Source of the DNA: a phage
Sequence record: PZ445439.1
DNA length: 64,000 nt
Reading direction: 5' to 3' (one strand)
Part shown: positions 8,774-29,835 of the stretch, one piece after another
Position numbering within the stretch: position 1 is the stretch's first letter
Layout of the letters: each line of letters begins with the position of its first letter
The notes under the pieces: generated by a model
What the model was told of the DNA's origin: nothing
Seen by the model: the letters and a program-made list of their open reading frames with translations, nothing else
Database searches by the model: none
Made by a program: the position numbers and the translations under genes

Positions 8774-9276
8774 TTAAAAATATTTTTTAAAACTCATCAT
8801 AACTTTATCATCAACATCATTATCAATCTGTGCAACAAGATAAGATGACAGTTCTACTTCTTGTGGCGCGGATTGAACATTATCAGAATTAAGATATTCA
8901 CGAATCCAAGGATATGGGTGTTTAACCGGAGCATCGGTAATTGGGCATGGAAGACCACACTGTTTCATACGAGATACAGTTAAGTAATCAATAAAGCTCC
9001 ACATGTTATTTGTATTTAATCCAGGAACATCGCCATCTTTAAATAAATGAACTGCCCAATCTTTTTCTTGGCGGTTAACTTCCATGAAAATATCAACTGC
9101 TTCTTGTTCACACTCTTGAGCAATTTTAACCCATTCATCGCCATCAGTGCCAAGTTGAAGTTGACGAATAATATATTGAGTGCCTTTAAGGTGAAGCTGT
9201 TCATCACGTGCAATGAACTTCATAATCTTGGCATTGCCTTCCATGATTTCCATATTCTTGTGGAAGTTAAAGGTAC
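8774..9276 (-). CDS. nrdB: ribonucleotide reductase small subunit, exon 2 (join with 10368..11043)
   Basis: encodes ..TFNFHKNMEIMEGNAKI.. R2 region; exon boundary inferred from codon arithmetic and terminal G of intron. Confidence 0.85.
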
Positions 9277-9412
9277 CGTTATGTTCGATTGAGCTCGCTA
9301 ATTCTCAACCCGTTCTCTTATGAACTGCTACATATTACTATGCAGACCAGACTATATCACAATCCCAGAGGGATTCTCCCCATTTCGAGTCGCTTGACCC
9401 TACGTCCGAAGA

Positions 9413-10222
9413 CTAGTCGTTGAACCTTGCTTTGCAATTGTCGCCGTGCCATCGTTTATATGTTGATGGTGATAAATCTTTCTTATCACAATATGGACAA
9501 TTCAATTGAATTCTATTTGGATTTAATTTACATCTGTCATTATGTTTTAGATAAAATCCAGGACCTTTACCAATGTGACCACAAAAATCACATGTGATTT
9601 CTTTTTGTGCAGGATGGGTCCCGTTCTTAACCATTTCTAATGTTTTTGCTGATGTTCTTTTCTTATGGTCTTCTGATAAGAAATGATGTGAACCGTCATT
9701 TACCCGTTTTGATTGAGTTTCTGACTGCATTTTACCACCGCAAAATACATGAGTACCTTCTTTTATAGCTGCAATATTGCGTTCTTTAACTTTTGCAATA
9801 TGCTCAGCTTGTTGAAAATTATGTATACCTAATGCAACTCTATTTAAATTAGATTTACGCTGTATTTCACCGTCTAAAAGATGAAATGTACCATTTTCTA
9901 TCTTAGATTTAATAGAGGCAATATTTTTAGCTCGTACTTCAGGGATATTAAAAATCTGGATTTCTCTAGATTTTGCGGCTTTAGAAGCTAATTCAGAAAT
10001 TTCTTCAGGAGAATATTTCATTCTAAGCTTTATAGCATGACAAGCCTGGTAATCTTTTTGAGCTAAATGTATATCATAATGTTCCTGTATAGAAAGGCAC
10101 ATCAAATTATCTAAATCATTATTTTCACGGTTACCGTCTTTATGATGGATTTCGTATGTTCTTCCATCAGAATCTTTAGGTATAGGTCCGTTAGCATCTA
10201 TCCAAATTTTTCTATAGTTCAA
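9413..10222 (-). CDS. HNH homing endonuclease, I-TevIII-like, full length 269 aa
   Basis: N-terminal HNH motif (EIHHKDGNRENNDLDNL), C-terminal Cys clusters; located inside the nrdB intron. Confidence 0.8.
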   Translation of the reverse strand: MNYRKIWIDANGPIPKDSDGRTYEIHHKDGNRENNDLDNLMCLSIQEHYDIHLAQKDYQACHAIKLRMKYSPEEISELASKAAKSREIQIFNIPEVRAKNIASIKSKIENGTFHLLDGEIQRKSNLNRVALGIHNFQQAEHIAKVKERNIAAIKEGTHVFCGGKMQSETQSKRVNDGSHHFLSEDHKKRTSAKTLEMVKNGTHPAQKEITCDFCGHIGKGPGFYLKHNDRCKLNPNRIQLNCPYCDKKDLSPSTYKRWHGDNCKARFND

Positions 10223-10249
10223 TTGTGCATCCTCTTAAAAGTATAATCA

Positions 10250-10257
10250 TATTTATA
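10250..10257 (-). promoter_or_regulatory. late promoter TATAAATA inside intron, upstream of endonuclease ORF
   Basis: exact TATAAATA about 28 nt upstream of the ORF start with AAGAGG Shine-Dalgarno between. Confidence 0.35.
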
Positions 10258-10367
10258 TTATACTAATTAAAGGTGCAAGCAAAACCTTGGCTGCTAGTTT
10301 TCCTATAAAGGACTTTCCAGCAATTAAAGGAGTTTTCGATAAACGTTACCGTTTAAAGGCGCATTTT

Positions 10368-11043
10368 ACGCAAAAGATACATAAAAACGAATTGCTTCTA
10401 AGGCATTAATAACGTGCAAACAGAGGTAAAGAGATTTCATTAGCTCACGCTTCCAATATGTCTCATGCTCAATAGCATCTTCAATAACGTCTTCGTCTGC
10501 ATTAATTTCTTTTTGGTATTCGATATCAGCTTTAGCGTTTTCCCAATAACGAGCTTTAACCAGAACATCATCATAATATCGTCCGATAGATTCGGCACGC
10601 TTCATAATAGCTTCATCTAATACAATCTCATCAAACACCTTCGATGGATCGGTATAAAGATTTCGCATAATATGAGTGTACGAACGAGAGTGAATAGTTT
10701 CACTGAATGTCCATGTTGCAACCCACGTATCTAATGAAGGGTCGGAAATCAGTGCCATAAGTACCGCAGATGGGGCCCTGCCTTGGATAGAATCTAATAA
10801 TGATTGATACTTAAGATTGTTTGTAAAGATGTCCTGTTGGAACTGAGGAAGCTTATTGAACTGCGCAGAGTCCAACATCAAGTTTACCTCTTCTGGGCGC
10901 CAGAAAAATGACAATTGCTTTTCAATAAGTTCTTCAAAAACTTTATGTCGCTGAATATCATAACGTGCGAGGCCAAGACCAGAACCAAAGAACATTGGTT
11001 CATTCAAAACATCGACTTGTTGTGTGTTAAAAACTGTACTCAT
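10368..11043 (-). CDS. nrdB: ribonucleotide reductase small subunit, exon 1
   Basis: R2 motifs up to ..NALEAIRFYVSFA then intron. Confidence 0.85.
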
Positions 11044-11098
11044 TATATTTTCTCACTTAGTTATTAACTCATCCATGAGTAAATTATAATCAAAAGTC

Positions 11099-13354
11099 TT
11101 AAAGCTTACAAGCAGAACAATCTTCAGCTTTAGGTGTTTCTAATTCATAGTCATCTGTACCTGACCCATCACGAGTGTTATGATAGTAGAGGTTTTTTCC
11201 GCCAAAGTACCAGAAGTAAAGCAGATCGTCAAGCATTACTGACATTGGCACTTTACCTTTCTCAAATACTGCAGGGTCATAGTAAGTATTAGCAGAAGCA
11301 GATTGGCACACCCATTTCAACATGATAGCAACTTGGGTTAAATAAGGTTTATTACCTTTCTTAGCAAGTTTCCACGCGTAGTCGTAAAGACCTATGTTAT
11401 GTTCTATATTAGGAACAACCTGACGGAAGTTGCCTTCTTTAGATTCTTTAATACTCACTGGACCCCGCGGCGGTTCAATCCCGTTTGTAGAGTTTGATAC
11501 TTGACTGCTTGACTCACAAGGCATGAGTGCAGACAACGTTGAGTTACGAATTCCATGTTCTTTGAGTTCAGCTCGAAGTTCTTCCCAATCACATACGTAG
11601 TTCGGGGCTGCGATTTGGTCAATCTTTTTATTGTACCAGTCGATAGGTAATTCGCCTCTAGACCATTTAGTGTCTGAATAATACTCGCAACATCCTTTTT
11701 CTTTGGCGAGTTTGATTGATGCTTTGATAAGGCCATATTGCAATCTCTCAAACAATTCATGAGTCAAATCGTTAGCGTCTTCATATGAAGCGAAGTTAGA
11801 AGCTAACCATGCAGCATAGTTCGTAACACCAACACCAAGATTACGACGCTTTTTGGCTTTTAAAGCTTCTGGAACCGGATAATCTTGATAGTCTAACAGG
11901 TTATCAAGTGCACGTACTTGTACTTCAGCAAGTTCATTAATTTTATCTTGGTCTTGCCAATCAAATTTATCTAACACGAATGCAGATAACGTGCATAAAC
12001 CAATTTCAGCATCAGGACCATTCACATCATTAGTTGGAATAGCGATTTCACAACATAAGTTACTCTGACGAATTGGAGCTTTTTCACGAATAAACGGAGT
12101 GTAGTTATTCGTGTTATCAACGAATTGCGGATAAATTCGAGCGGTGCCAGAACGTTCAGTCATGAACAATTCAAAGAGTTCTAGTGCTTTGATTCTTTTC
12201 TTTCTGATTGTTGGGTCTTTTTCAGCTTTCTCATAAAGCTCACGGAATTTATCTTGATCTTCAAAGAACGAGTAGTATAGTTCGCCTGACATTTCGTGAG
12301 GGCTAAATAAAGTAATATAATCATTTTTACCAAGGCGTTCCATCATAAGGTCATTAATCTGAATTCCGTAGTCCATATGTCGAATACGGTTTTCATCCAC
12401 GCCTTTGTTATTTTTCAGAACTAATAGGTTCTCTACTTCTAAGTGCCACATCGGATAATACGCTGTAGCAGCACCACCACGAATACCACCTTGAGAACAA
12501 GATTTTACTGCAGTTTGGAAATGTTTCCAGAATGGAATAACACCCGTATGTCGAACTTCACCCATACCGATCTTAGAACCTTCTGCACGAAGCATACCAA
12601 CGTTGATACCAATACCAGCTCGTTTAGAAATATATTCAATAATTGATGCTGAAGTTTTGTTAATAGATTTTAACGAATCACCGGCTTCAATAACTACACA
12701 ACTAGAGAACTGGCGAGTTGGAGTACGAGCACCTGCCATAATTGGAGTAGGCAATGAAACTTGATGAGTAGAAACGGCATCATAAAAACGAATAATATGT
12801 TTCAAACGGTCGTGAGTTTCGTCTTGATGTAAGGCCATGCCAATAGCCATGATAGCAAACTGGGGAGTTTCATAAATCTTCCCAGTTGTTTTATCTTTAA
12901 CTAGATATTTTTCTTTAAGCTGCATAGCACCAGCATAAGTCAGGTCAAAGTCTCGTTCATGTTTAATCTGTGAATCGAGATAAATGATTTCTTCTGCTGA
13001 ATATTGAGACAACAGCTCAGGGTCATATTTGCCTTCATTAACACAATAAGAAATATGGTCGATAAAAGCAGGCGGTTCAAACTGCCCATATACATCTTTA
13101 CGAAGTGCAAACATTAGCCCTTTGGCGGCGACATACTGATAATCAGGTTCTTCGACAGAAATCGAGTTAGCTGCAACTTTAATACAAATCTTCTGGATAT
13201 CTTTGGTGCTCATCCCGTCGACAAGATGGGTCTTAATTTCTTCGTACAATTCATATGGGTCAATTTGTGTTCCTTCACATTGCCAAGTTAAGACTTGAAT
13301 AATTTTCTGTGCATCAAAATTTTGGGATACACCACTGCTCTTAGTTACTTGCAT
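11099..13354 (-). CDS. nrdA: ribonucleotide reductase large subunit
   Basis: 751 aa with class I RNR active-site region (..NLCCEI..) and C-terminal CxxC. Confidence 0.95.
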   Translation of the reverse strand: MQVTKSSGVSQNFDAQKIIQVLTWQCEGTQIDPYELYEEIKTHLVDGMSTKDIQKICIKVAANSISVEEPDYQYVAAKGLMFALRKDVYGQFEPPAFIDHISYCVNEGKYDPELLSQYSAEEIIYLDSQIKHERDFDLTYAGAMQLKEKYLVKDKTTGKIYETPQFAIMAIGMALHQDETHDRLKHIIRFYDAVSTHQVSLPTPIMAGARTPTRQFSSCVVIEAGDSLKSINKTSASIIEYISKRAGIGINVGMLRAEGSKIGMGEVRHTGVIPFWKHFQTAVKSCSQGGIRGGAATAYYPMWHLEVENLLVLKNNKGVDENRIRHMDYGIQINDLMMERLGKNDYITLFSPHEMSGELYYSFFEDQDKFRELYEKAEKDPTIRKKRIKALELFELFMTERSGTARIYPQFVDNTNNYTPFIREKAPIRQSNLCCEIAIPTNDVNGPDAEIGLCTLSAFVLDKFDWQDQDKINELAEVQVRALDNLLDYQDYPVPEALKAKKRRNLGVGVTNYAAWLASNFASYEDANDLTHELFERLQYGLIKASIKLAKEKGCCEYYSDTKWSRGELPIDWYNKKIDQIAAPNYVCDWEELRAELKEHGIRNSTLSALMPCESSSQVSNSTNGIEPPRGPVSIKESKEGNFRQVVPNIEHNIGLYDYAWKLAKKGNKPYLTQVAIMLKWVCQSASANTYYDPAVFEKGKVPMSVMLDDLLYFWYFGGKNLYYHNTRDGSGTDDYELETPKAEDCSACKL

Positions 13355-13441
13355 ATATTCCTCAGTATAGGTTGATAGACATTACTCCAAACGGGATAGT
13401 ATTTATCCCGTTAATTTATTATACACTTTTAAACTGAAGCG

Positions 13442-13696
13442 TTAATTATCCTCGGCAATAATTTCTTCGTATTCTTTAGGTGTCAAGACTGTGATATTGA
13501 AATAAACCAACGGTTCTTTTTCTATACCGAATCCACCACAAAATTCACGATATTCATAAATTCGTTCATGTGAATAACAAATGAATCGTTCACCTTTAAC
13601 TGTGATTTCACTATTTGGTGAAGGGATATCCAGTTCACTTGGATTTTTCATTTCAAAAATTGTGGTGCCATATGAATTAATAAAACGTAAAATCAT
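13442..13696 (-). CDS. hypothetical protein, 84 aa
   Basis: track ORF, ATG start, between td and nrdA. Confidence 0.5.
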   Translation of the reverse strand: MILRFINSYGTTIFEMKNPSELDIPSPNSEITVKGERFICYSHERIYEYREFCGGFGIEKEPLVYFNITVLTPKEYEEIIAEDN

Positions 13697-13697
13697 T

Positions 13698-14558
13698 TTA
13701 TACCGCCATTTTAGCTTTGATAGCTGGATGAGATTCGTAATTTTTAAGAACGAAATCAGAATGTGTCATCGTTCCAGTAACCCAGTCCATTTGGATTTTT
13801 GTAGGCCAATTCTCAAAATTACTAGGCCAATTAATTTCAAGAGAACATAACTCTTTAGGTTCACGACGAAGAACTTCTTTGCATTGTTCTACATGATTGC
13901 TGTAGATATGCGTGTTGCCGCCTGAGAACACTAAATCACCTGGGATAAGGTTACACATCTTCGCTACAATATGCGTCAAGGCAGCGTACGAGGCAATGTT
14001 GAATGGCAGGCCCAAGAAAACATCTACACTGCGTTGATACCATTGTAAATCAAGATGCCCATTACGCACATTAAATTGATAGAACATATGACAAGGAGGA
14101 AGAGCCATTTGGTCAATTTCTGCAGGGTTCCATGCAGAAACTATTTGACGACGATCATTAGGAAGAGCTTTAATACGGTCGATAGTTTTGACCAATTGGT
14201 CTACACCACCAAAATCACGCCATTGCTTACCATAAATAGGACCAAGTTCGCCGCTATGATATCCAAGGTCTTTTGCCTGATTTTCATAGTTGTCGTCCCA
14301 AATAGTTTTACCTTGAATAAGACTACCATGAGTACGAATACGCAAATCATTAACATTGGTAGAACCAGACATGAACCACAGTAACTCGGCAATACAAGCT
14401 TTCCATGCTAATTTCTTAGTTGTTACTGCAGGGAATCCTTTAGTCAGATCCCAACGTAATTTAGTTCCGAACAGGGCAATAGTGCCGGTGCCTGTACGGT
14501 CGTCTGTTTCGTAGCCATTTTCTAGGATATCATTAATCAGGTATTGGTATTGTTTCAT
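13698..14558 (-). CDS. td: thymidylate synthase, uninterrupted (no intron)
   Basis: 286 aa continuous ORF with TS motifs (PPCH.., DLGPIYG). Confidence 0.95.
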   Translation of the reverse strand: MKQYQYLINDILENGYETDDRTGTGTIALFGTKLRWDLTKGFPAVTTKKLAWKACIAELLWFMSGSTNVNDLRIRTHGSLIQGKTIWDDNYENQAKDLGYHSGELGPIYGKQWRDFGGVDQLVKTIDRIKALPNDRRQIVSAWNPAEIDQMALPPCHMFYQFNVRNGHLDLQWYQRSVDVFLGLPFNIASYAALTHIVAKMCNLIPGDLVFSGGNTHIYSNHVEQCKEVLRREPKELCSLEINWPSNFENWPTKIQMDWVTGTMTHSDFVLKNYESHPAIKAKMAV

Positions 14559-15142
14559 TTATAAACGCTCTCAGTAATTTCGGTGAGTTCATCGATTCTG
14601 TAGTAATGAGATTCTACCATAGAACGTTGAAGCATAATATCTTGGACGAAATCTTTATCAAGTTGAACATCGGAATTAACACGACATTTCTTAATGATTT
14701 TAGTCATCACGATTTCATCGGCATAAGGCAGTGCTTGTTTAAGTAGAGCAGGACCGCCGATAACAGATACATTAACATGTTCAGTAGAAAGTTTAAACGG
14801 TACATCAGTTGCAGGGCTAAACAGGTTAATTTCACCACCTGTTACCAAGGTAATAAATTCAGATTGGGTGATATAGAACCGTGCAAGTTCATCAGTTTTA
14901 GTCCTAGGCAGTTTTCTGGCCATATCAGTGACAACCACATGAGTACGATCTGGGAGTAGACGAGGTAATGATGCAAAAGTCTTAGCACCCATAACCATTA
15001 CAGTGTTTTTAGTGCGAGCAACAAAGTTACTCATATCTTGTTTGATATGCTTCCATGGAAGTCCATCACCTAATCCAAAAGCATATTCCAGTTTATCATC
15101 AACTGTTTTAGATGGTGCGCATGCGAATACTAATTTAAGCAT
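14555..15142 (-). CDS. frd: dihydrofolate reductase
   Basis: 195 aa, DHFR-like; 4 nt overlap with td. Confidence 0.9.
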   Translation of the reverse strand: MLKLVFACAPSKTVDDKLEYAFGLGDGLPWKHIKQDMSNFVARTKNTVMVMGAKTFASLPRLLPDRTHVVVTDMARKLPRTKTDELARFYITQSEFITLVTGGEINLFSPATDVPFKLSTEHVNVSVIGGPALLKQALPYADEIVMTKIIKKCRVNSDVQLDKDFVQDIMLQRSMVESHYYRIDELTEITESVYK

Positions 15143-15383
15143 TTTTAAGTCCTTTAATAACTTTTTGGATTTGTGATTTAGACGAAACTAGTTCTGTCTG
15201 AATTTCCAAACCATCGGTTTGGTCAAATGTTGTAACACAAACGCGAGGTTTTGTTGTGTATCGCCCAGACAAATCAAATGCGTCGCCAATGAATTCGGCC
15301 AAATCCGAATGGTCTAAATTAACTGAAGTATAAACTTCATATCCGACATCAGCGCCTTGAGAGTATTCAACAACAACATTCAT
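15135..15383 (-). CDS. hypothetical protein, 82 aa (frd.1 position)
   Basis: track ORF, ATG start. Confidence 0.5.
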   Translation of the reverse strand: MNVVVEYSQGADVGYEVYTSVNLDHSDLAEFIGDAFDLSGRYTTKPRVCVTTFDQTDGLEIQTELVSSKSQIQKVIKGLKNA

Positions 15384-15385
15384 AA

Positions 15386-15634
15386 TTATTTCCTCAGATT
15401 TTTCTTAACAACTTTCCAATCAACTTTAAACGATTCAACATCAGAGTGGTGAATCCAGAATCCTGCACTTTCACCATCTTCGTAGAGTGGACATCCATCA
15501 CATTCTTCGTTCCAACCCATTTCACGTAAAGCTTCTTCAGCTTGTTCAAGGAGTTCAGCGTCTTTACCGACGATGTTGAAGTACCATTTACCTCTAACTT
15601 CAGAATCTTTGATGCTCTGACGTTGCAATCTCAT
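15386..15634 (-). CDS. hypothetical protein, about 82 aa (frd.2 position; internal Met start)
   Basis: AAGGAGAATAAA-ATG site at internal Met; upstream track extension crosses a hairpin. Confidence 0.5.
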   Translation of the reverse strand: MRLQRQSIKDSEVRGKWYFNIVGKDAELLEQAEEALREMGWNEECDGCPLYEDGESAGFWIHHSDVESFKVDWKVVKKNLRK

Positions 15635-15696
15635 TTTATTCTCCTTCACTTTTGATTTGATAGGGCTACTATAACATAACCCTATCTGATTGTACA

Positions 15697-16089
15697 CTAC
15701 TTTTTAAAAGTTTTTTGCAAAAGTTCGATGATTTCGTCGACGTTGGTTTCATCTACGATACAATGGATTTTTGTTACACCTAAAGCTATACCTTCGTTAG
15801 TAGGTTGAGGCTTTACTATATCTACCTCAGTAAAGTATTTGAACTCGTCAGGATAAATCTCAAAATAAGTTTCAATTTCACCACCGGCAGAACATACAGT
15901 ACCATCTTCCATAGTTACACTTACTACGTTTGACGTATCGCTATCATAATCAGGTTCCATTCCGTTTACAACAAAACTAGGCCCGTGGAGTTCAATCAAT
16001 TTTAACATCTTAGCGTTATTGTGTGGTGCTTCTTGAACAAAGTCATCTTTAAATAAAGGGTTAATGATATAAGATTTTCCGATTTCCAT
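15697..16089 (-). CDS. hypothetical protein, 130 aa (frd.3 position)
   Basis: track ORF, ATG start. Confidence 0.55.
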   Translation of the reverse strand: MEIGKSYIINPLFKDDFVQEAPHNNAKMLKLIELHGPSFVVNGMEPDYDSDTSNVVSVTMEDGTVCSAGGEIETYFEIYPDEFKYFTEVDIVKPQPTNEGIALGVTKIHCIVDETNVDEIIELLQKTFKK

Positions 16090-16118
16090 TTTGATTTCCT
16101 CATGTTGTTGATAGGTCT

Positions 16119-16147
16119 ATACTAACACATCCAGGGAAGAAGTAAAC
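16119..16147 (-). promoter_or_regulatory. early-type promoter candidate (GTTTAC, 17 nt, TAGTAT)
   Basis: located just downstream of gene 32 terminator, upstream of frd.3-like ORF. Confidence 0.35.
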
Positions 16148-16172
16148 AACTTTTTCGGCAATTTACAGATAC

Positions 16173-16196
16173 TCAAAAGGGAGACCGAAGTCTCCC
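16173..16196 (-). terminator. intrinsic terminator after gene 32 (GGGAGAC-UUCG-GUCUCCC then U tract)
   Basis: stem-loop with UUCG tetraloop followed by UUUUG, 7 nt after gene 32 stop. Confidence 0.55.
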
Positions 16197-16202
16197 AATT
16201 TA

Positions 16203-17105
16203 TTATAAACCAGCTAACAGGTCATCGAGGTCGCCATCATCAGAGGATGAGGTAGAGCTCATGAAGTCATCTTCAGTTTTTGCAGAACTAAAGGCTTCCA
16301 TGTCTTTATCAAAATCGTCAAGGTCAGAAGCAACTTTATCTGCAACAGAAGCTGCTGCGGCTGCTGCACCACCAAGAGCGGCAGTACCAAGAACCTTAGC
16401 GAAAGATTCATTTAATTTTTCAAAGGATTTGAACTGGTCTTTAGCCGTCAAAGTAGTAAGGTCTACCATCTGGTCATATAGTTCTTTCTGGAATGCTTCA
16501 TCATTAATACGAGGAATTTCAGATTGACCCAAGAATTTAGATTCGTCATAGTTGCTAAAACCGGAAACCTGCTTAGCTTTCAGAACGAAGTTGGCACCTT
16601 CAAACGGACAAGTAACATCAACTGGAGTTTCACCCATTTCGGTATCAACAGCAATCATTGCATTGATTTTGTCCCAAATCTTTTTACCGAAACGATATTT
16701 AAATACTTTACCTTCGTTATCTGGAGCTTGAGGGTCTTTAACAACCAGAATATTAGCCCAATAAGAAGTTTTACGTTTCAGTTGAGAATATTCATTTTTG
16801 TTGGTATTGTACAGGTCATTTTTACTAATGTACTGACATACAGGACAAGAGTCATAATCACCATGTGTAGAAGAGCAATTTTCAATATACCATTTACCAT
16901 TTTTCTTGAAACCATGGTTAACAAGAATTGCAAATGGTAGTGCATCATCAGTTTTTGCTGGCAAGAAACGAATTACCGCTTGACCATTACCGGATGCATC
17001 TAGCTTCAGCTTCCATTCGCCTTTATCTTCTGAAGAGAAACCTTTGTTACCATTCAGTTTAGCCATTTGAGCAGCGAGGTCAGCAGTAGATTTACGTTTA
17101 AACAT
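16203..17105 (-). CDS. 32: gp32 single-stranded DNA-binding protein
   Basis: 300 aa, matches recalled T4 gp32 including acidic C-terminus. Confidence 0.95.
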
Positions 17106-17160
17106 GGATTATTACCTTTTATTTAGATTATTTAATTTATTTACAGTTGGTTGCTACGAC
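17106..17160 (-). promoter_or_regulatory. gene 32 mRNA translational operator region (A/U-rich UUAAA-type repeats)
   Basis: mRNA leader ..UAAAUAAAUUAAAUAAUCUAAAUAAAAGGUAAUAAUCC-AUG preceded by a 7 bp hairpin. Confidence 0.45.
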
Positions 17161-17186
17161 ACTTATACCTCGTAGCTGGTATGATT

Positions 17187-17194
17187 TATTTATA
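17187..17194 (-). promoter_or_regulatory. late promoter TATAAATA upstream of gene 32
   Basis: exact TATAAATA on minus strand about 80 nt before gene 32 ATG. Confidence 0.35.
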
Positions 17195-17223
17195 AAGTAA
17201 TTTTAACACACAAGAAATAAAGC

Positions 17224-17877
17224 TTAATACTTACATGATTTGATTGTTTCTATGAACAATTTCTTAGCAACATTTCCATCGATTTGAAGTATTTTTCGAT
17301 ATGCCTTTAATTTGGTAGAATAATTTTGCCAGACTAAGTTATCGGTGAGTTCGTCGTGCTTATCTATAATATTCAAAAACGAGTCCAACAATAAGAAAGT
17401 CTCAAATGAAATTATATTGCTTTGTAACAATTTAAATATGTAGCTCGACTGAACTTTATTATTATAATCAAATATCTCTTGAAGCGCACTAACTTCCACT
17501 TTCTTACTGAAATAGTAGATGTTACGTACGTCTTCAGCAAACGTCTCTTTAGCTTGTTTGAGACGTCCAATATATTCCCTATAGAAAACTAATGCATCAG
17601 CGTCTGATATCTCACCAATCCATGCGTCTTGGTTAGCAACTAAGTTGCTTATGAATATCAAGGTGAGTTCCTTCAATTTATATTTCTCTGCTAGTTTTTC
17701 AAAGAAATATTTATCTCGGCGTTTTTGATACGCATTATCCGAAACACGCATGCGCCAGTTATATTTGATTACGTCATACCGACCACCAAAGTGGTTTTTG
17801 CACATCAAGTATAGTTTATATACTGATTTACCGTTAATATAACGTTCTCCGTCAGGAGGCATGCGTATTTTAATCAT
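17224..17877 (-). CDS. 59: gp59 helicase loader
   Basis: 217 aa, matches recalled T4 gp59. Confidence 0.9.
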   Translation of the reverse strand: MIKIRMPPDGERYINGKSVYKLYLMCKNHFGGRYDVIKYNWRMRVSDNAYQKRRDKYFFEKLAEKYKLKELTLIFISNLVANQDAWIGEISDADALVFYREYIGRLKQAKETFAEDVRNIYYFSKKVEVSALQEIFDYNNKVQSSYIFKLLQSNIISFETFLLLDSFLNIIDKHDELTDNLVWQNYSTKLKAYRKILQIDGNVAKKLFIETIKSCKY

Positions 17878-18553
17878 AGTTCCATCCAGGCCATTTTGAA
17901 GATTTAAGTCTATACGTAACTAGAGATGCAGAAATATTAAAAACATCCGAAACTTCTGTGCATGATGAGTATTTTATACCATCAATAATTATAGGTTTTT
18001 GTTTTTTAATAGTTCTTTCTTTAGAATGCGGCTTTGAATTTGCTATTCTAAGAGCTTCTTTGGTTGAATCAGGCATCGGCTTATTCGTTTTTCGCCCTTT
18101 TCGGACTTTACTCAAAGCTAATTTATGAGCTTCAGATAGTTTCTTACCCTTATTAGGGGATGGTATTTTTCTTTCTAATCTGGTTTTAGATACTTTAGCC
18201 TTAGTCTCTTCAGATCTAGGTTTCCCTATTTTAGAAAGTGAAATAGCCCTTTTAGCTTCATCACTTTGTTTTTTACCAGGGCCACCTTTACCACCTGGAA
18301 CCAGGTTATAAGTATCAGTTCGCAAAACAAAATCTTCATTAACCAATTCTGCTTCTTTTTTATAGGCGTCCTTGTCATTATCATATTCATAAAGAACTTC
18401 AGTATAAAAATTTTTTAGCCCGTATTTAGCTTTGGCCGCTAATATAGCGCGACCAGACCCAATATACCAATCTTTCTCTTTATGTTTTTTGTGTACGCCT
18501 ATATAAATTTTACCATTTATTTTATTGGTAGTTTTATACACAACGTATTTCAT
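17870..18553 (-). CDS. free-standing GIY-YIG homing endonuclease-like protein (Seg-like), 227 aa
   Basis: N-terminal GIY-YIG-type motif (VVYKTT..GKIYIGV); Lys-rich NUMOD-like repeats; overlaps gene 59 by 8 nt and gene 33 by 4 nt. Confidence 0.8.
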   Translation of the reverse strand: MKYVVYKTTNKINGKIYIGVHKKHKEKDWYIGSGRAILAAKAKYGLKNFYTEVLYEYDNDKDAYKKEAELVNEDFVLRTDTYNLVPGGKGGPGKKQSDEAKRAISLSKIGKPRSEETKAKVSKTRLERKIPSPNKGKKLSEAHKLALSKVRKGRKTNKPMPDSTKEALRIANSKPHSKERTIKKQKPIIIDGIKYSSCTEVSDVFNISASLVTYRLKSSKWPGWNYD

Positions 18554-18888
18554 AATAAGAAATCTAACGTATTAGTTTTTTCACCACGAGCAACTGATGG
18601 GCGAAGCATGTTTTCGTCAATTGCTTCGCTTGTAATTTTTTCAATAATTCCTGTAGGAATAAATTTAGCAAATTGTGTTTCTGGAATAGAATTTTCTTCC
18701 AAGAAAGCAGTTGTTGCTTCTAAATAAGACATACCGAATTGTTCAACCATGGATTCGATAATGAATCCGTTTTCTTGTCTGTCAAGCAATTTAGCGATAT
18801 CATCTTTATCGTGTTTTACTGCTAATTCTTGTTCAGATAAACCGGCCTCATCAACCGGTTTAATATCACTTAGTGAAAACTGTGTCAT
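18550..18888 (-). CDS. 33: gp33 late transcription co-activator
   Basis: 112 aa, matches recalled T4 gp33. Confidence 0.85.
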   Translation of the reverse strand: MTQFSLSDIKPVDEAGLSEQELAVKHDKDDIAKLLDRQENGFIIESMVEQFGMSYLEATTAFLEENSIPETQFAKFIPTGIIEKITSEAIDENMLRPSVARGEKTNTLDFLL

Positions 18889-19135
18889 AAAGCTCGACTA
18901 CCTCTTCGTTTTCAGCTTCAAATTGGTCACGAGCGTCTTTATGATAAAGAGCTAACAAACGATTAAACATTTTTCCATCGACACCAAGCTCTTCTTTAGC
19001 ACGAGTACGAATGTCTTTAATCAGTTCATTATAACCAGAAATTTTAAGTTTGTTATCGGAAGCTTCCTTGACTAGTTTAGCCAGTTCTTCACCATGCACA
19101 TCTTGATTAAATTCAACTGCTTCTTTCTTAGCCAT
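18866..19135 (-). CDS. dsbA: double-stranded DNA-binding protein DsbA
   Basis: 89 aa from internal Met (MAKKEAVEF..), matches recalled T4 DsbA. Confidence 0.8.
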   Translation of the reverse strand: MAKKEAVEFNQDVHGEELAKLVKEASDNKLKISGYNELIKDIRTRAKEELGVDGKMFNRLLALYHKDARDQFEAENEEVVELYDTVFTK

Positions 19136-19142
19136 GTTTACC

Positions 19143-20060
19143 TCAGAATTCATTAATTACACTTGTTAATTTAGAAAGACCAGATTTTACAAAGTATGAA
19201 TAAATCTTGCCTTTAGGTTGTTGTTTATATGAGTTATAATACTCTATAATGGTTGAAGCAATATTATCAGGGATATAATCAAAATCAATGAGAACCAAAT
19301 TTTCTTGATACCGTTTATATTCTTCTGCACTTAATAATACTTCAGCTTGAGAACGGTCATTGGCAATTGCTTCAATAATCGTTGTTTTCATGCTCGGAGT
19401 TCGTTCACCATCAACTCTGGTAAACCAGAAGTCGCCACGAACTCGAACAGATGCAACACCATCCTTACGGTCACCTTTAAGAATTTTAGTCATGCAATCA
19501 ATTTCAGCAGAACCATTCTTAATTTTAACCCATTTTTTCTGTGGTGGCGACCACTGTTTAACGTTAGGATATTTGTGTAATTGTGTAAAGTCACCATCTG
19601 ATGCAACAATACATACTTTATGTCCAGCTAATGACAAATATTTAGTTAATACACCGATATGGTCATCCGCTTCATACTTGTCAATATCCATTACAACGTA
19701 TGGCATGTATTTCTTAATCTCATCAACAACTTGATGGAGTGCAGTAAAATATCCTTCCCAATCCCACTTTGAAGCTTCACGATCGGTTTTACGATTTTTC
19801 TTGTAATAGTAAGCAAAGTCACGACGCCAATAACCCGAAGTAGCATTATCCATACATAATACAAATTTTGTATAGCCTTGCTTACGGAACATCACTACGT
19901 TTTTACGAATTGAATTCAAGATTACATGGCGAACCATCGGAACGGTAATTTTATCGCCGTCTTCAAAGTTGTTTAATGCGGCTGCCAATGCAATGTTACT
20001 AAAGTCAGCAAGTGCAATACCTTCTTTGTAATCTTCATCTAACATCATTTCTAAATCCAT
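19143..20060 (-). CDS. rnh: RNase H (5'-3' exonuclease, FEN family)
   Basis: 305 aa, size and position as T4 rnh. Confidence 0.9.
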   Translation of the reverse strand: MDLEMMLDEDYKEGIALADFSNIALAAALNNFEDGDKITVPMVRHVILNSIRKNVVMFRKQGYTKFVLCMDNATSGYWRRDFAYYYKKNRKTDREASKWDWEGYFTALHQVVDEIKKYMPYVVMDIDKYEADDHIGVLTKYLSLAGHKVCIVASDGDFTQLHKYPNVKQWSPPQKKWVKIKNGSAEIDCMTKILKGDRKDGVASVRVRGDFWFTRVDGERTPSMKTTIIEAIANDRSQAEVLLSAEEYKRYQENLVLIDFDYIPDNIASTIIEYYNSYKQQPKGKIYSYFVKSGLSKLTSVINEF

Positions 20061-20092
20061 ATGAACCTCTTGTTCAGTTAGTCAACTTGTCT

Positions 20093-20122
20093 ATAGTAAC
20101 ACACTCATTTGAAAGCGTAAAC
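20093..20122 (-). promoter_or_regulatory. early-type promoter candidate for rnh (GTTTAC, 18 nt, TACTAT)
   Basis: motif pair about 30 nt upstream of rnh ATG. Confidence 0.35.
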
Positions 20123-20125
20123 TGG

Positions 20126-20133
20126 TATAAATA
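20126..20133 (+). promoter_or_regulatory. late promoter TATAAATA for gene 34
   Basis: exact TATAAATA about 30 nt upstream of gene 34 ATG. Confidence 0.55.
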
Positions 20134-20163
20134 AGTATTATTGAAACAATAAAGGAAAAACGA

Positions 20164-23100
20164 ATGGCCGACATCAAACGTAAGTTCAGAGCCGAAGACG
20201 GTCTGGACGCCGGTGGCGACAAGATTGTTAACGTAGCATTAGCCGACCGTACAGTAGGTACTGATGGCGTAAACGTTGACTTCCTGGTACAAGAAAACAC
20301 CGTTCAAGTATATGATTCTACGCGTGGATATAACAAAGGATTTGTTGTTCTTTATGACAACCGTTTATATCAAGCAATAAATGATATCGTGTCTCCTTCC
20401 GGGGCATTTAACCTTTTACAATGGCGTGCAGTTCGTACCGATGCACAATGGATAACTGTCGCTTCTGGGACTTATCAACTTTCTTCAGGTGAATCGATTT
20501 CGGTTAACACTGGTGCCGGCAATGATATGGTTTTCACGTTGCCAAATACGCCGGTTGATGGTGATACTGTTGTTTTGGCTGATATTGGTGGAAGAACCGG
20601 GACAGTTAAAGTACAGATTAACGCGTCTGTGCAGAGTATTTTAAACTTTAGAGGTGAACAAGTTCGTACAGTTTTAATGACGCGCCCACGTTCACAACTA
20701 TTGTTTGTGTTTAGTAATCGTTTGTGGCAGATGTATATTACCGATTATGGTAAAGAATCAATCACTGTTACACCTGCGACACCATATCAAGCACAAGCAA
20801 ATGATTTTATCGTTCGTCGTTTTACTAGTGCAGCACCAATCAACATTACACTTCCACGTAATGCTAACAATGGTGATATAATCAGCCTAGTCGATTTAGA
20901 TAGATTAAACCCACTATATCATACAATTGTTAAAACATTTGATGATACAACGTCTATTGGTGAAGTCGGGACTCATATTGCCGAAGGCAGAAATGACTCT
21001 GACGCGTTTTTTGTTTTTGATGCTGCAAATAGTTTATGGCGTATATGGGAAGGCGACCAGAAATCGCGTCTTCGTATTATCCGTGCGGATTCAAATATTC
21101 GTCCAAATGAAGAAGTTCTTATTTTTGGCACAAATAACGCTACAGCCGGAACTATTAATCTTACGCTGCCTTCCGGAATTTTGAGTGGTGACACTGTTAA
21201 AATTTCAATGAACTACATGCGTAAAGGCCAAACAGTAAAAATTAAAGCTGCCGAAGGTGATACAATTGCTTCTTCTGTTGCATTGCTTCAGTTCCCTAAA
21301 CGTTCTGAATATCCACCTGATGCTCAATGGGTCTCTGTTACTGAACTAGAATTCAATGGCACTACTTCATATGTTCCTGTATTAAAATTAGCATATATCG
21401 AAGACACCGTTGCTGGTACACGTTATTGGGTTGTTCAACAAAACGTCCCAACTGTAGAACGTGTTGATGCTGGAACTGATGCTACACGAGCTCGTTTAGG
21501 TGTTATTGCTCTTGCTACTCAAGCGCAAGCAAATGTTGATTTAGAGAATACTCCAGCTAAAGAAGTTGCTATTACTCCGGAAACATTGGCAAATCGTACA
21601 GCAACTGAAGCTCGACGTGGTATCGCTAAAATTGCCACAACAGCACAAGTTAACCAGAATTCCACAGCATCATTTGTGGACGATACTATTGTTACGCCTA
21701 AAAAACTAAATGAGCGTACAGCAACTGAAACTCGTCGCGGTCTTGCTGAAATTGCTACTCAGGCCGAAACCGATGCCGGTCTTGATGACACAACGATTAT
21801 TACACCTAAGAAATTGCAGGCACGTCAGGGCTCTGAAACACTATCTGGTATAGTTAAATATGTATCAACTACTTCTGCTACTCCTGCTGAAACTCGTGGA
21901 ACCGCAGGCACTAACGTTTATAATAAAACCGTAAATAATTTAACTATTTCTCCTAAAGCCCTTGACCAATATAAAGCAACTTATGCTCAACAAGGTGCGG
22001 TAATTTTAGCTGTTGATAGTGAAGTAATTGCTGGTCAATCACAAGCAGGTTATTCTCATGCTGTAGTAACTCCTGAAACACTACATAAGAAAACTTCTAC
22101 TGATGGACGTATTGGTTTAATTGAAATTGCTACGCAAGCAGAAACTAATGCTGGGACTGATTATACACGCGCAGTAACACCTAAGACGTTAAATGATAGG
22201 AAAGCTACGGAAGGATTATCCGGCATAGCCGAACTTGCTACGCAAGTTGAATTTGATACTGGAACTGATGATACTCGTATCTCGACTCCACTGAAAATTA
22301 AAACTCATTTTGATTCTTCTGACCGTACCAGTGTTAATTCTGATTCCGGACTTATTGAAGAAGGAACCTTGTGGAACCATTATACTCTTGATATTTCTAA
22401 AGCAAATGAAACACAACGCGGTACACTTCGCGTAGCGACACAGGCAGAATCTAATGCAGGAACTTTAGATGATGTTCTTATTACTCCTAAAAAGCTTTTA
22501 GGGACTAAGTCCACTGAAACGTCTGAAGGCGTAATTAAGGTTGCTACTCAGGCTGAAACTGTAACAGGAACTTCTGCTAATACTGCTGTATCTCCTAAGA
22601 ATTTAAAATGGATTGTCCAGAAAGAACCAACATGGGCTGCTACTACAGCAATTCGCGGATTCGTTAAAACTTCATCCGGTTCTATTACATTCGTTGGTAA
22701 TGATACAGTCGGTTCTACACAACCTTTAGAATCATATGAGAAAAATAGCTATGCAGTATCACCATATGAATTAAACCGTGTACTTGCTAACTATTTGCCA
22801 TTGAAAGCTAAAGCCGTAGATAGTAATTTATTAGATGGCCTAGATTCATCTCAGTTCATTCGTAGGGACATTGCACAGACGGTTAATGGTTCACTATCCT
22901 TAACCCAACAAACGAATCTGAGTGCCCCTCTTGTATCAACTAGTACTGCTACGTTTGGTGGTTCAGTTTCGGCAAATAGTACATTAACTATTTCTAACTC
23001 TGGAACAGCTACTCGTCTGATTTTTGAAAAAGGACCTCAAACTGGAACTAACCCAGCACAGACGATGACTATCAGAGTTTGGGGAAATGAATTTGGCGGT

Positions 23101-24039
23101 GGTTCAGATACAACACGTTCTACTGTATTTGAAGTTGGCGATGAAACATCTAATCACTTTTATTCTCAACGTAATAAAGCCGGGAATATAACGTTTAGTA
23201 TCAATGGTACTGTGATGCCAATAAATGTTAACGCTTCAGGCACGTTAAATGCGAATGGCGTTGCAACATTTGGTCGTTCAGTTACAGCCAATGGCGAATT
23301 CATTAGCAAGTCTGCAAATGCTTTCAGAGCAATTAGTGGTGATTACGGATTCTTTATTCGCAATGATGCTACTAACACCTATTTTATGCTTACTGCATCA
23401 GGTGACCAGACTGGCGGATTTAATGGATTACGTCCTTTAGCTATTAACAATGCATCTGGTCAAGTAACGATTGGTGAAAGCTTAATCATTGCTAAAGGTG
23501 CTACTATAAATTCAGGTGGTTTAACAGTTAACTCAAGAATTCGTTCTCAGGGTTCTAAAACTGCTGATTTATACACTCGTGCTCCTACTGCTGATACAGT
23601 CGGATTCTGGTCAATTGACGTCAATGATTCAGCTACATATAACCAATTCCCGGGTTATTTTAAAATGGTTGAAAAAACTAATGAAGTGACTGGACTTCCA
23701 TACTTAGAGCGCGGTGAAGAAGTTAAATCTCCTGGTACGCTGACTCAGTTTGGTAACACACTTGATTCGCTTTACCAAGATTGGATTACTTATCCAACGA
23801 CGCCAGAAGCGCGTACCACTCGCTGGACACGTACATGGCAGAAAACCAAAAACTCTTGGTCAAGTTTTGTTCAGGTATTTGATGGAGGTAACCCTCCTCA
23901 GCCGTCTGATATCGGTGCTTTACCATCTGATAATGCTACAATGGGGAATCTTACTATTCGTGATTTCTTACGAATTGGTAATGTTCGCATTGTTCCTGAC
24001 CCAGTGAATAAAACTGTTAAATTTGAATGGGTTGAATAA
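20164..24039 (+). CDS. 34: gp34 long tail fibre proximal subunit
   Basis: 1291 aa, repetitive fibre sequence, first gene of 34-35-36-37-38 operon. Confidence 0.95.
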   Translation: MADIKRKFRAEDGLDAGGDKIVNVALADRTVGTDGVNVDFLVQENTVQVYDSTRGYNKGFVVLYDNRLYQAINDIVSPSGAFNLLQWRAVRTDAQWITVASGTYQLSSGESISVNTGAGNDMVFTLPNTPVDGDTVVLADIGGRTGTVKVQINASVQSILNFRGEQVRTVLMTRPRSQLLFVFSNRLWQMYITDYGKESITVTPATPYQAQANDFIVRRFTSAAPINITLPRNANNGDIISLVDLDRLNPLYHTIVKTFDDTTSIGEVGTHIAEGRNDSDAFFVFDAANSLWRIWEGDQKSRLRIIRADSNIRPNEEVLIFGTNNATAGTINLTLPSGILSGDTVKISMNYMRKGQTVKIKAAEGDTIASSVALLQFPKRSEYPPDAQWVSVTELEFNGTTSYVPVLKLAYIEDTVAGTRYWVVQQNVPTVERVDAGTDATRARLGVIALATQAQANVDLENTPAKEVAITPETLANRTATEARRGIAKIATTAQVNQNSTASFVDDTIVTPKKLNERTATETRRGLAEIATQAETDAGLDDTTIITPKKLQARQGSETLSGIVKYVSTTSATPAETRGTAGTNVYNKTVNNLTISPKALDQYKATYAQQGAVILAVDSEVIAGQSQAGYSHAVVTPETLHKKTSTDGRIGLIEIATQAETNAGTDYTRAVTPKTLNDRKATEGLSGIAELATQVEFDTGTDDTRISTPLKIKTHFDSSDRTSVNSDSGLIEEGTLWNHYTLDISKANETQRGTLRVATQAESNAGTLDDVLITPKKLLGTKSTETSEGVIKVATQAETVTGTSANTAVSPKNLKWIVQKEPTWAATTAIRGFVKTSSGSITFVGNDTVGSTQPLESYEKNSYAVSPYELNRVLANYLPLKAKAVDSNLLDGLDSSQFIRRDIAQTVNGSLSLTQQTNLSAPLVSTSTATFGGSVSANSTLTISNSGTATRLIFEKGPQTGTNPAQTMTIRVWGNEFGGGSDTTRSTVFEVGDETSNHFYSQRNKAGNITFSINGTVMPINVNASGTLNANGVATFGRSVTANGEFISKSANAFRAISGDYGFFIRNDATNTYFMLTASGDQTGGFNGLRPLAINNASGQVTIGESLIIAKGATINSGGLTVNSRIRSQGSKTADLYTRAPTADTVGFWSIDVNDSATYNQFPGYFKMVEKTNEVTGLPYLERGEEVKSPGTLTQFGNTLDSLYQDWITYPTTPEARTTRWTRTWQKTKNSWSSFVQVFDGGNPPQPSDIGALPSDNATMGNLTIRDFLRIGNVRIVPDPVNKTVKFEWVE

Positions 24040-24047
24040 GAGGTATT

Positions 24048-25163: not shown

Positions 25164-25168
25164 ATTGA

Positions 25169-25192
25169 GGGAGCCTTCGGGTTCCCTTTTTC
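25169..25192 (+). terminator. intrinsic terminator after gene 35 (GGGAGCC-UUCG-GGUUCCC then U tract)
   Basis: stem-loop with UUCG loop followed by TTTTTCTTT. Confidence 0.55.
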
Positions 25193-25194
25193 TT

Positions 25195-25202
25195 TATAAA
25201 TA
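25195..25202 (+). promoter_or_regulatory. late promoter TATAAATA for gene 36
   Basis: exact TATAAATA about 24 nt upstream of gene 36 ATG. Confidence 0.55.
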
Positions 25203-25888: not shown

Positions 25889-25896
25889 GAGGACTT

Positions 25897-28800: not shown

Positions 28801-29805
28801 AACTTGGCTCTTACCCCGAACGGTGTAAAACGTTATGAAGCCGATTCTGAAATAGCTATTAATAGCCAAACTGGCATTCGTATTAGAAGCAACAGCGATA
28901 AAACTGGTTCTGTTGCTACAATGCTACGAAATGATGGTGGTAGTTTTTATATTCTGTTTACAGATAAAAATGCCACCGATGGCGCAGCAACTGTTAATGG
29001 TGATTGGAATAGTAAACGTCCTTTCGCAATTAACTTAACAACCGGCGAAGTGCTAATGAATAACGGCATAGCTGTTCGCAGCGCTGCTTTATTCTATAAT
29101 AGCATAAACGTCAAAGATAATGGTTCTATTAACTTTGATAAGTCCGGAGCTAACCCAAGAAATATGAGAATATTTCATGCTGGCGATGGCACTCGTGGTA
29201 ATCGCATTGAAATTGCCGATGAAACTAACTATATTGCTTACTTCCAAAAATTACCTGGTGGTCAAAACCAAGTTTCATTCAATAGCGCTACACTTTCTGG
29301 ATTAACACAGTGTAATCAATTTGGTGTTAACACAACAAACGCACTTGGTGGAAACAGTATAACATTTGGTGATACCGATACTGGTATTAAGCAAAATGGC
29401 GATGGATTATTAGACATATATGCGAACAACGTACAAGTGTTCCGTTTCCAAAACGGTGATTTGTACTCATACAAAAATATAAATGCTCCAAACGTTTATA
29501 TTCGTTCTGATATTCGTTTAAAATCCAACTTTAAGCCTATCGAAAATGCACTTGATAAAGTTGAAAAACTTAACGGTGTCATTTACGATAAGGCTGAATA
29601 CATCGGTGGAGATGCAATTGAAACTGAAGCGGGTATTGTGGCTCAAACGTTACAAGACGTTTTACCAGAAGCTGTCCGTGAAACAGAAGACAGTAAGGGT
29701 AATAAAATACTCACTGTTTCTTCTCAAGCCCAGATTGCTCTTCTAGTTGAAGCTGTGAAAACACTTTCTGCTCGTGTAAAAGAACTCGAATCTAAACTTA
29801 TGTAA
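25897..29805 (+). CDS. 37: gp37 long tail fibre distal subunit, T2-type with C-terminal intramolecular chaperone domain
   Basis: 1302 aa; conserved N-terminus; C-terminal ..[17 protein letters not shown].. chaperone-like domain. Confidence 0.95.
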
Positions 29806-29835
29806 AAGAGGGCTTCGTCCCTCTAAGGATTTTTA

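Follow-up and report, generated by a model that had tools for sequence, protein, structure and literature searches.

The region considered here lies within a 64,000-nucleotide stretch of phage DNA (PZ445439.1), hereafter referred to as the window, and almost certainly represents nrdB, the small-subunit gene of the aerobic ribonucleotide reductase of a T4-like phage, split by an RB3-type IA2 intron that carries an intact I-TevIII gene, which codes for an HNH homing endonuclease. According to the list of open reading frames and the sequence, all nrdB features are located on the minus strand, at exactly the positions given to them in the initial annotation. Exon 1 (10368..11043) comprises codons 1-225 and the opening base of codon 226 (Cys), the putative group I self-splicing intron occupies 9277..10367 (1091 nt, delimited by sequence and alignment) and exon 2 (8774..9276) contains the remaining two bases of Cys226 and the rest of the gene, stop codon included. 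The upstream ORF (11043..10366) ends with ...AIRFYVSFA followed by TAA and the downstream ORF (9253..8774) begins with MEIMEGNAK, in agreement with the earlier observation that the R2 frame stops after AIRFYVSFA and resumes about 1.1 kb downstream. The last base of exon 1 is T at 10368, the intron starts with A at 10367 and ends with G at 9277, and exon 2 opens with GT at 9276. Joining of the exons gives GCG T/GT ACC (mRNA codons GCG-UGU-ACC), and the ligated-exon junction predicted from the sequence reads GCGTGTACC.

The spliced coding sequence (1179 nt, 392 aa) is equal in length to the intronless alleles of the phages G53 and FriedrichMiescher, and its alignment with these shows zero gaps at the junction, a colinearity that fixes the position of the splice site. 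The spliced protein aligns end to end and unbroken with E. coli R2 (E 6e-126, residues 3-388), the junction ...AIRFYVSFACTFNF standing opposite ...AIRFYVSFACSFAF of the E. coli protein, and the rebuilt Cys corresponds to the E. coli Cys, as had been proposed. It belongs to Pfam PF00268 (E 4e-36; ferritin-like R2, class Ia RNR beta subunit) and contains the R2 motifs for the di-iron ligands and the radical tyrosine, SETIHSRSYTHI and NALEAIRFYVSFAC being encoded in exon 1 and ARDExLH in exon 2; since the di-iron ligands are divided between the two exons, splicing would be needed for NrdB function. In several related genomes automatic annotation gives a pair of separate 'beta subunit' CDSs plus a hypothetical protein, as might be expected if nrdB were a disrupted pseudogene into which an HNH gene had merely been inserted, with no RNA splicing. 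However, the exons are conserved, the boundaries restore exactly the reading frame and the conserved Cys, and the sequences flanking the inserted ORF together form an entire group I core, the same as in RB3 and T4, leaving a pseudogene with a negligible probability. The value of the split-gene reading for annotation is that one spliced nrdB plus I-TevIII takes the place of a pair of 'beta subunit' ORFs with an intervening 'hypothetical protein'; several related records still mis-annotate the split gene.

The non-coding parts of the intron are 100% identical to those of the RB3 nrdB intron. In a hand-drawn P1-P9.2 structure all 71 base pairs form in four natural nrdB-intron variants, to which the pair count was restricted, compared with 31-45% when the pairing partners were slid. 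The P3/P7 pseudoknot also forms in a helix-by-helix complementarity check, and the fold of 9277..10367 thus upholds the assignment to group I made in the initial annotation. The 5' half of the predicted ribozyme core (10270..10367, minus strand), delimited by complementarity per helix, includes the GCGC guide, P1, P2 with a GUAA loop, the 5' strand of P3, P4, P5, the 5' strand of P6, and P6a, whereas the 3' half (9277..9426, minus strand), delimited by the Rfam model RF00028 and complementarity, contains P6', J6/7, P7, P7.1, P7.2, P3', P8, P7', P9, P9.1, P9.2 and the terminal G. In P1 the exon sequence GCGU is paired to the internal guide sequence GCGC (intron nt 6-9), with a U(-1).G6 pair at the 5' splice site in all four variants, and the omega G is present at the 3' end of the intron (9277). 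P7, GACUA/UAGUC plus a bulged U, matches those of the T4 td, nrdD and nrdB introns exactly, and the extra helices of subgroup IA between P7 and P3' are present (P7.1, GUC-UUCG-GAC; P7.2, GGUC-AAGC-GACU).

Compensatory changes occur in P9 (A-U/G-C, compared with T4/F1) and in P2 (compared with the Salmonella phage UTK0003). Among the four near-identical variants 100% of the cells are paired, with two compensatory pairs (the shuffle control, at 22/500, being indecisive), a covariation signal that is thin because the known intron copies are nearly identical; a search of IMG/VR for I-TevIII relatives was of no use in this respect as it returned only one locus, carrying the T4-type deletion. In UTK0003 the ORF has diverged by about 13% and the core by only about 4%, which is expected if the ribozyme is under selection. 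No Rfam family matched the whole window at gathering thresholds, and RF00028 was found only in a permissive scan, on the 3' half of the intron (33.9 bits, E 1.4e-6, gathering score 50; J6/7-P7-P3'-P8-P7'-P9 aligned). A first reading of this low score as weak evidence was dropped, as the T4 nrdB intron, which is the reference copy of this element, also falls below the gathering score (35.7 bits); the value reflects a limit of the model, which cannot span an ORF in P6. Minimum free energy folding of an ORF-less mini-intron recovered P1, P4, P5, P7, P7.2, P8, P9 and P9.1, missed P3, and was discarded as a test because P3 and P7 make a pseudoknot. When the three T4 introns were aligned with MAFFT, P6-P7.1 came out misplaced, and the helix-by-helix checks were used instead.

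The T4 nrdB intron reportedly self-splices, an observation attributed to Gott et al. in 1986. On the basis of this copy and of the 100% identical RB3 core, GTP-dependent self-splicing may be inferred for the intron in the window. By its near-identity to the experimentally studied copies, the early/middle nrdA-nrdB transcript would fold into the P1-P9.2 ribozyme, guanosine would attack after the exon-terminal U paired to G in P1, and the exons would be ligated after the terminal G to produce GCG-UGU-ACC and the 392-aa NrdB.

The ORF within the intron (9413..10222, minus strand), identified from the ORF list, Pfam and comparison with RB3, encodes a 269-aa I-TevIII from a TTG start, followed by a stop codon; at the 3' end of the ORF, the five final codons and the stop share nucleotides with P6', J6/7 and the P7 5' strand. 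The protein has an N-terminal HNH domain (Pfam HNH_3, E 6e-13, residues 4-48) and a C-terminal pair of CX2CX12-13HX3C zinc fingers (at residues 211 and 242), and 268 of its 269 residues are identical to RB3 I-TevIII, the sole difference being D23Y, which bears out its earlier description as a full-length HNH ORF. The residues essential in I-TevIII (H26, H27, N39, H48, C211, C214, C242 and C245; Robbins et al. 2007, PMC1865063) are all retained, including those of the zinc fingers (C211/C214 and C242/C245) needed for DNA binding (PMC1865063). The protein is identical to that of phages F1 and WFL6982, and a sequence search of the PDB with it returned no relative. The TTG start is the one used in the RB3 annotation, and the ORF occupies the same intron loop as in RB3, in accordance with orthology of the two proteins; an ATG three codons 5' of it (ATG CAC AAT TGA) was rejected as the start, as it abuts the Shine-Dalgarno sequence and is immediately followed by a stop.

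Upstream of the ORF, fold prediction places a hairpin with a late promoter at 10226..10277 (minus strand), in which the Shine-Dalgarno sequence AAGAGG (10236..10231) is paired with CCUUU and the loop contains the T4 late-promoter motif TATAAATA (10257..10250). The predicted fold has a free energy of -17.9 kcal/mol (z -3.55), and none of 200 shuffled sequences was as stable. This layout has been described for I-TevIII (PMC2988022), and late promoters and translational control are also documented (PMC2988022, PMC2790892). Within long nrdA-nrdB transcripts the I-TevIII ribosome-binding site would be hidden in the hairpin, while late transcripts starting at TATAAATA in the loop would lack the 5' arm and allow translation of I-TevIII from TTG.

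As an element the intron is nothing new. The same intron occurs in 128 GenBank phage records, in 84 of them at full length, a commonness on which the initial annotation was silent, and by its sequence it is the already known RB3-type nrdB intron of T4-like phages, characterised genetically and biochemically together with I-TevIII (Eddy & Gold 1991; Robbins et al. 2007, PMC1865063; GenBank X59078, KM606994). Chance resemblance is not an issue, as the 1091 nt are 99.8, 99.6 and 99.5% identical to the annotated nrdB introns of WFL6982, RB3 and F1, respectively. The RB3 intron shares with the window the insertion site, the length (1091 nt in KM606994; the older X59078 aligns over 1090 nt), the identical non-coding core and the TTG-initiated 269-aa ORF, in which there are 4 nt differences, only that of D23Y being non-synonymous. 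RB3 differs in having mobE between nrdA and nrdB, where the window has none, and its exon 1 is only 80% identical because exon 1 of the window is of Mosigvirus type. The T4 nrdB intron (598 nt) has in common the insertion site, the intron itself and the ribozyme core, but a 491-nt deletion has reduced its ORF to a 97-aa C-terminal remnant, a defective I-TevIII; two 1-nt deletions are present as well, and two P9 pairs are G-C in place of A-U/G.U. Alignment with both copies thus confirmed what had been stated initially, that the T4 ORF is truncated and that of RB3 intact.

The closest intron copy is that of the Mosigvirus vB_EcoM_WFL6982 (MK373774), with 2 nt differences in 1091; its nrdA, exon 1 and I-TevIII protein are identical to those of the window. 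The other T4 introns of group IA2, td (I-TevI) and nrdD/sunY (I-TevII), show the same helix order (P1-P9.2), with P7, P7.2, J8/7 and P9 identical or nearly identical to those of the window and P3, P4, P7.1 and P8 different in sequence yet complementary. As in the window, their endonuclease ORF lies in a loop outside the core and has a late promoter and a ribosome-binding-site hairpin; however, they reside in other host genes, their endonucleases are of the GIY-YIG type instead of HNH, and the nrdD ORF is located in P9.1 rather than in P6. Among enzymes of solved structure, I-HmuI from phage SPO1 resembles I-TevIII in being an intron-encoded phage protein with an HNH module and an extended DNA-binding region (PMC1865063), although no sequence similarity between it and I-TevIII of the window was detectable in the PDB search, and I-HmuI nicks one strand whereas I-TevIII, as a dimer, makes a double-strand break (PMC1865063).

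I-TevIII acts as a dimer cleaving at -14/-16, and homing of the RB3 intron has been demonstrated experimentally (PMC1865063); for this reason the earlier designation of the element in the window as a potentially active mobile intron appears justified. Splicing and cleavage by this copy are suggested by its 99.6-100% identity to RB3, and recombination-dependent repair would then transfer the intron to the recipient together with neighbouring exon sequence. The intron might instead splice but no longer be self-mobile, its endonuclease being inactive or too weak and its persistence due to vertical inheritance or to neighbouring recombination. The T4 copy is precisely such a case, its spread depending on MobE (PMC2790892), and purified I-TevIII is labile and of low specific activity, the RB3 intron homing at only 4.3% per recipient (PMC1865063). 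In addition, D23Y is located three residues before the catalytic H26/H27 and the enzyme assayed was the Asp form. Against loss of mobility, the ORF is of full length with every essential residue kept, and the window has no mobE beside nrdB for mobilization in trans. Tyr23 is the commoner natural allele, 67 of 98 records that matched a 60-nt probe over codon 23 being 100% identical over the aligned part and the RB3 group 98.3%, and this form is found unchanged in both Tequatrovirus and Mosigvirus. Moreover, intron identity reaches 99.5-99.8% between genera with flanking genes 70-80% identical, a sign of recent horizontal spread. The co-conversion tracts on either side of the intron in a Mosigvirus background lend homing some indirect support. 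An immobile intron is therefore improbable, and a potentially mobile one is the preferred reading.

The sole unusual feature, of modest evolutionary interest, is that this intron copy sits precisely where DNA of Mosigvirus type meets DNA of Tequatrovirus type. The window consists of a Tequatrovirus backbone with a Mosigvirus-like block of about 14 kb (~9250..23500, from nrdB exon 1 to gene 34), one border of which falls inside a tract of shared identity of about 1.2 kb (10442..9246) formed by the intron and what appear to be co-converted exon margins. Exon 1 is of Mosigvirus type except for its last ~75 nt: over nt 1-390 it has 0-1 mismatches to G53 and WFL6982, compared with 75-80 to Tequatrovirus references. 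Exon 2 is of Tequatrovirus type, with 9-16 mismatches to Tequatrovirus references over nt 45-503 and 101-102 to G53 and WFL6982 (101 to WFL6982, in which exon 2 and the downstream sequence are of Mosigvirus type). Mismatch comparison delimits the margin of exon 1, Tequatrovirus-like within a Mosigvirus-like exon, to 10368..10442 (minus strand); over 10369..10426 G53 has 13 mismatches and RB3 and T4 none, whereas from 10443 upward RB3, T4 and FriedrichMiescher diverge strongly from the window. The upstream co-conversion boundary thus falls between 10426 and 10443 and is shared with WFL6982. At the downstream end of the tract, informative sites place the switch from WFL6982-like to exclusively Tequatrovirus sequence within 9209..9260 (minus strand), C at 9260 occurring only in the window and WFL6982, 9254 being Mosigvirus-like, and 9245 and 9230 onward T4-like; the fine position is uncertain, since over 9150..9300 the differences of some Tequatroviruses amount to only 2 nt. 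Placement of the exon 2 crossover to a few nucleotides was dropped as over-interpretation because the informative sites are polymorphic within Tequatrovirus too.

Such a junction could also be an artefact, two phages cultured or occurring together having been assembled into a chimera with the switch inside the common stretch of about 1.2 kb, which is the longest near-identical tract of the region and the kind of sequence where assemblers mis-join. In keeping with this explanation, the nrdB junction sequence of the window has no copy in GenBank phages or in IMG/VR and JGI metagenome contigs, the latter two queried with exact-match probes for the exon 2 junction. However, at the second border of the block, in gene 34 (about 23300..23700), there is no switch at a repeat and identity to both references shifts gradually through 85-90%; a small patch of a third type (10528..10651), together with private SNPs, points to a genuine lineage that evolves independently; and T-even phages recombine freely, the nrd region being a documented hotspot (PMC2790892). 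A chimera thus seems rather unlikely, and the mosaic border at the intron is compatible with recombination between genera associated with the intron, which forms, with its co-converted margins, the identity tract within which the Mosigvirus-like block meets the Tequatrovirus backbone.

It is conceivable, though on balance doubtful, that a break made by I-TevIII or the portable perfect homology provided by the intron served as the crossover point that moved the ~14-kb Mosigvirus module into a Tequatrovirus, displacing mobE and the td intron and creating a chimeric NrdB. If this were true, the C-terminal tail of NrdB would derive from another genus than its NrdA partner, and the locus would be a natural, sequence-resolved case of a homing element driving the transfer of a large module from one phage genus to another. 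Together with WFL6982, in which the intron has a pure Mosigvirus context, and the intronless G53, the window forms a three-genome series that illustrates an intron crossing genus boundaries and the reach of the flanking sequence. The module comprises nrdB exon 1, nrdA, an intronless td, frd, 32, 59, a seg-like endonuclease gene, 33, dsbA, rnh and most of gene 34.

The nrdB gene is split on the minus strand into an exon-1 ORF (11043..10366), which ends ...AIRFYVSFA followed by TAA, an intron ORF (10222..9413; 269 aa, TTG start) and an exon-2 ORF (9253..8774) beginning MEIMEGNAK, so that the R2 frame stops and resumes downstream as described in the initial annotation. Reading of the minus-strand sequence places the final T of exon 1 at 10368, an intron of 1091 nt that begins with A at 10367 and ends with G at 9277, and the opening GT of exon 2 at 9276. 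The ligated exons read GCG-TGT-ACC, restoring the Cys codon predicted from the exon T and the exon GT behind the intron-terminal G. The resulting CDS (1179 nt) encodes a 392-aa NrdB that matches Pfam Ribonuc_red_sm (E 4e-36) and, over residues 3-388, E. coli R2 (E 6e-126), gapless at the junction with AIRFYVSFACTFNF facing AIRFYVSFACSFAF. The intronless nrdB genes of the Mosigvirus G53 and of FriedrichMiescher (Tequatrovirus-type), 1179 nt each, are colinear across the junction and thereby locate the splice sites with single-nucleotide precision. Functional NrdB needs splicing, since the R2 motifs are divided between exon 1 (SETIHSRSYTHI and EAIRFY) and exon 2 (ARDEQLH).

The gene is interrupted by an element already known, the RB3-type nrdB intron with an intact I-TevIII, the HNH homing endonuclease of this intron, and the earlier observation and its interpretation were both right. 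A megablast search with the 2270-nt region matched 886 phage records, the top full-length matches being T4-like phages, RB3 among them, annotated with nrdB and 'I-TevIII homing endonuclease'. Compared by segments, the RB3 intron is identical at 145 of 145 positions of the 5' non-coding part, 806 of 810 nt of the ORF and 136 of 136 positions of the 3' non-coding part. In agreement with the initial annotation, the RB3 ORF is intact and that of T4 truncated: 491 nt of ORF sequence and two single bases are missing from the otherwise same intron in T4, leaving a 598-nt intron with a 97-aa remnant ORF termed defective in the T4 annotation. According to an intron-only search, 128 GenBank phage records carry the nrdB intron, 84 of them at full length (T4-type deletions were recognized by ~56% query coverage and ORF-less derivatives by ~29%). 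In phage CE1 the nrdB intron has become ORF-less through a clean deletion bounded by two ACAATTG repeats, of which one overlaps the TTG start and the other lies close to where the I-TevIII ORF ends; both repeats are kept in the window (10226..10220 and 9441..9435, minus strand), thus the same loss could occur here. In records MT682712, MK373774, OQ359887 and ON229909 the split nrdB is annotated as two 'beta subunit' CDSs and a hypothetical protein, and the CE1 record mislabels exon 2 as 'major capsid protein'.

When the window was scanned with Rfam at the gathering score, the group I model RF00028 remained below threshold, and a permissive scan aligned J6/7, P7, P3', P8, P7' and P9 (33.9 bits, E 1.4e-6). 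The reference copy of the element, in T4 nrdB, itself reaches only 35.7 bits, hence the shortfall is attributable to the ORF in P6 and not to an intron defect. A structure drawn manually after the T4 intron family and then checked computationally bears out the group I assignment: P1, P2, P3, P4, P5, P6 with P6a, P7, P7.1, P7.2, P8, P9, P9.1 and P9.2 are all fully complementary, P1 being formed by exon GCGU and GCGC with a U.G pair at the splice site. The T4 td and nrdD introns have the same helix order; their P7, P7.2 and P9 match the T4 nrdB copy exactly, whereas P3, P4, P7.1 and P8 differ in sequence yet stay complementary. Across four natural nrdB-intron variants (the window, F1, T4 and Salmonella phage UTK0003) 71 of 71 pairs are standard in each, while slid partners pair at only 31-45%. 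Compensatory A-U/G-C changes occur in P2 and P9; the close similarity of the copies leaves little covariation. Divergence in UTK0003 is ~13% for the ORF but only ~4% for the core. The ORF occupies a loop between P6a and P6', its last codons and stop being shared with P6', J6/7 and the 5' strand of P7.

The 269-aa product, the full-length HNH protein first noticed, matches Pfam HNH_3 at residues 4-48 (E 6e-13), is identical to the F1 and WFL6982 proteins and differs from RB3 I-TevIII by D23Y only. A 60-nt probe across this codon matched 98 records and indicates that Tyr23 is the commoner natural allele (67 of the 98 are 100% identical over the aligned part; the RB3 group, 98.3%). I-TevIII acts as a dimer, RB3 intron homing depends on it, and H26, H27, N39 and H48 are required for cleavage and C211, C214, C242 and C245, in two CX2CX12-13HX3C fingers, for DNA binding (Robbins et al. 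2007, PMC1865063). All eight residues are kept in the window. Upstream of the TTG start lie a Shine-Dalgarno sequence (AAGAGG, 10236..10231, minus strand) and a T4 late-promoter motif (TATAAATA, 10257..10250, minus strand). The RNA from 10290 to 10215 is predicted to fold as a long hairpin (-17.9 kcal/mol, z -3.55) that pairs the Shine-Dalgarno and leaves TATAAATA in the loop. This predicted layout matches the published I-TevIII scheme, in which early transcripts yield no endonuclease and translation is confined to late transcripts starting inside the hairpin (PMC2988022, PMC2790892). Judged from its sequence, the intron is very probably able to splice and to move.

Some interest attaches only to the position of the intron, at a junction between phage genera. 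Upstream of it (nrdA, exon 1 and on to ~23500) the window is 97-100% identical to the Mosigvirus references G53 and WFL6982 but only 70-80% to T4. Downstream (exon 2, denA, rnlA and on to position 1) and from ~23500 to 40000, its identity is 96-99% with T4-type phages and 60-80% with Mosigvirus. A Mosigvirus-like block of ~14 kb (~9250..23500) thus lies inside an otherwise Tequatrovirus-like window, its second border falling in the 3' part of gene 34 (~23300..23700). WFL6982 carries the same intron with 2 nt differences, flanked on both sides by short T4-like co-conversion tracts. Its upstream tract boundary lies between 10426 and 10443, as in the window, and a C at 9260 is private to the two; the window, unlike WFL6982, then turns T4-type 20-70 nt into exon 2, and the two halves are therefore joined within 10442..9246, a tract of ~1.2 kb common to intron-bearing members of both genera. 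Finer crossover mapping is unsafe, as Tequatrovirus itself is polymorphic at several of the informative sites. The junction sequence was not found elsewhere among GenBank phages, IMG/VR contigs and JGI metagenome contigs. An assembly chimera could have collapsed on just such a tract shared by both genera, but we consider this improbable, the border in gene 34 being gradual rather than repeat-bounded. As a genuine junction, it would be consistent with either an event initiated by an I-TevIII break or ordinary recombination inside the intron that the two genera share. In T-even phages, large genome segments are exchanged through the action of homing endonucleases, with the nrd region as a hotspot (PMC2790892).

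The encoded NrdB is chimeric (residues 1-225 Mosigvirus-type, 226-392 T4-type including the C-terminal tail) and its partner NrdA is Mosigvirus-type. The tail (within 8774..9276) reads ...DDKVMMSFKKYF as in T4-type phages versus ...DQNVINSYKKYF in Mosigvirus, the genus type of NrdA (11099..13354). The nrdA-nrdB spacer (11044..11098) is only 55 nt long without a mobE or hef gene and td (13698..14558, minus strand; 286 aa), within the Mosigvirus-like block, is intronless, which leaves I-TevIII as the sole homing endonuclease at the nrd locus. A seg-like GIY-YIG homing endonuclease gene (17870..18553, minus strand; 227 aa; Pfam I-TevI_DNA-bd, NUMOD3 and a weak SegE_GIY-YIG) lies between genes 59 and 33; it is absent in T4 and G53, 99.7% identical in Shigella phage SSE1 and found in 28 records. 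The region 28500..30500, without blastn similarity to T4 or G53, falls by position in the distal tail-fibre/adhesin region. In exon 1, the patch 10528..10651 (minus strand) has 17-18 mismatches to both Mosigvirus references, is also unlike the T4-type references and looks like a small segment from a third source. Position 10393 is T in all six comparator phages.
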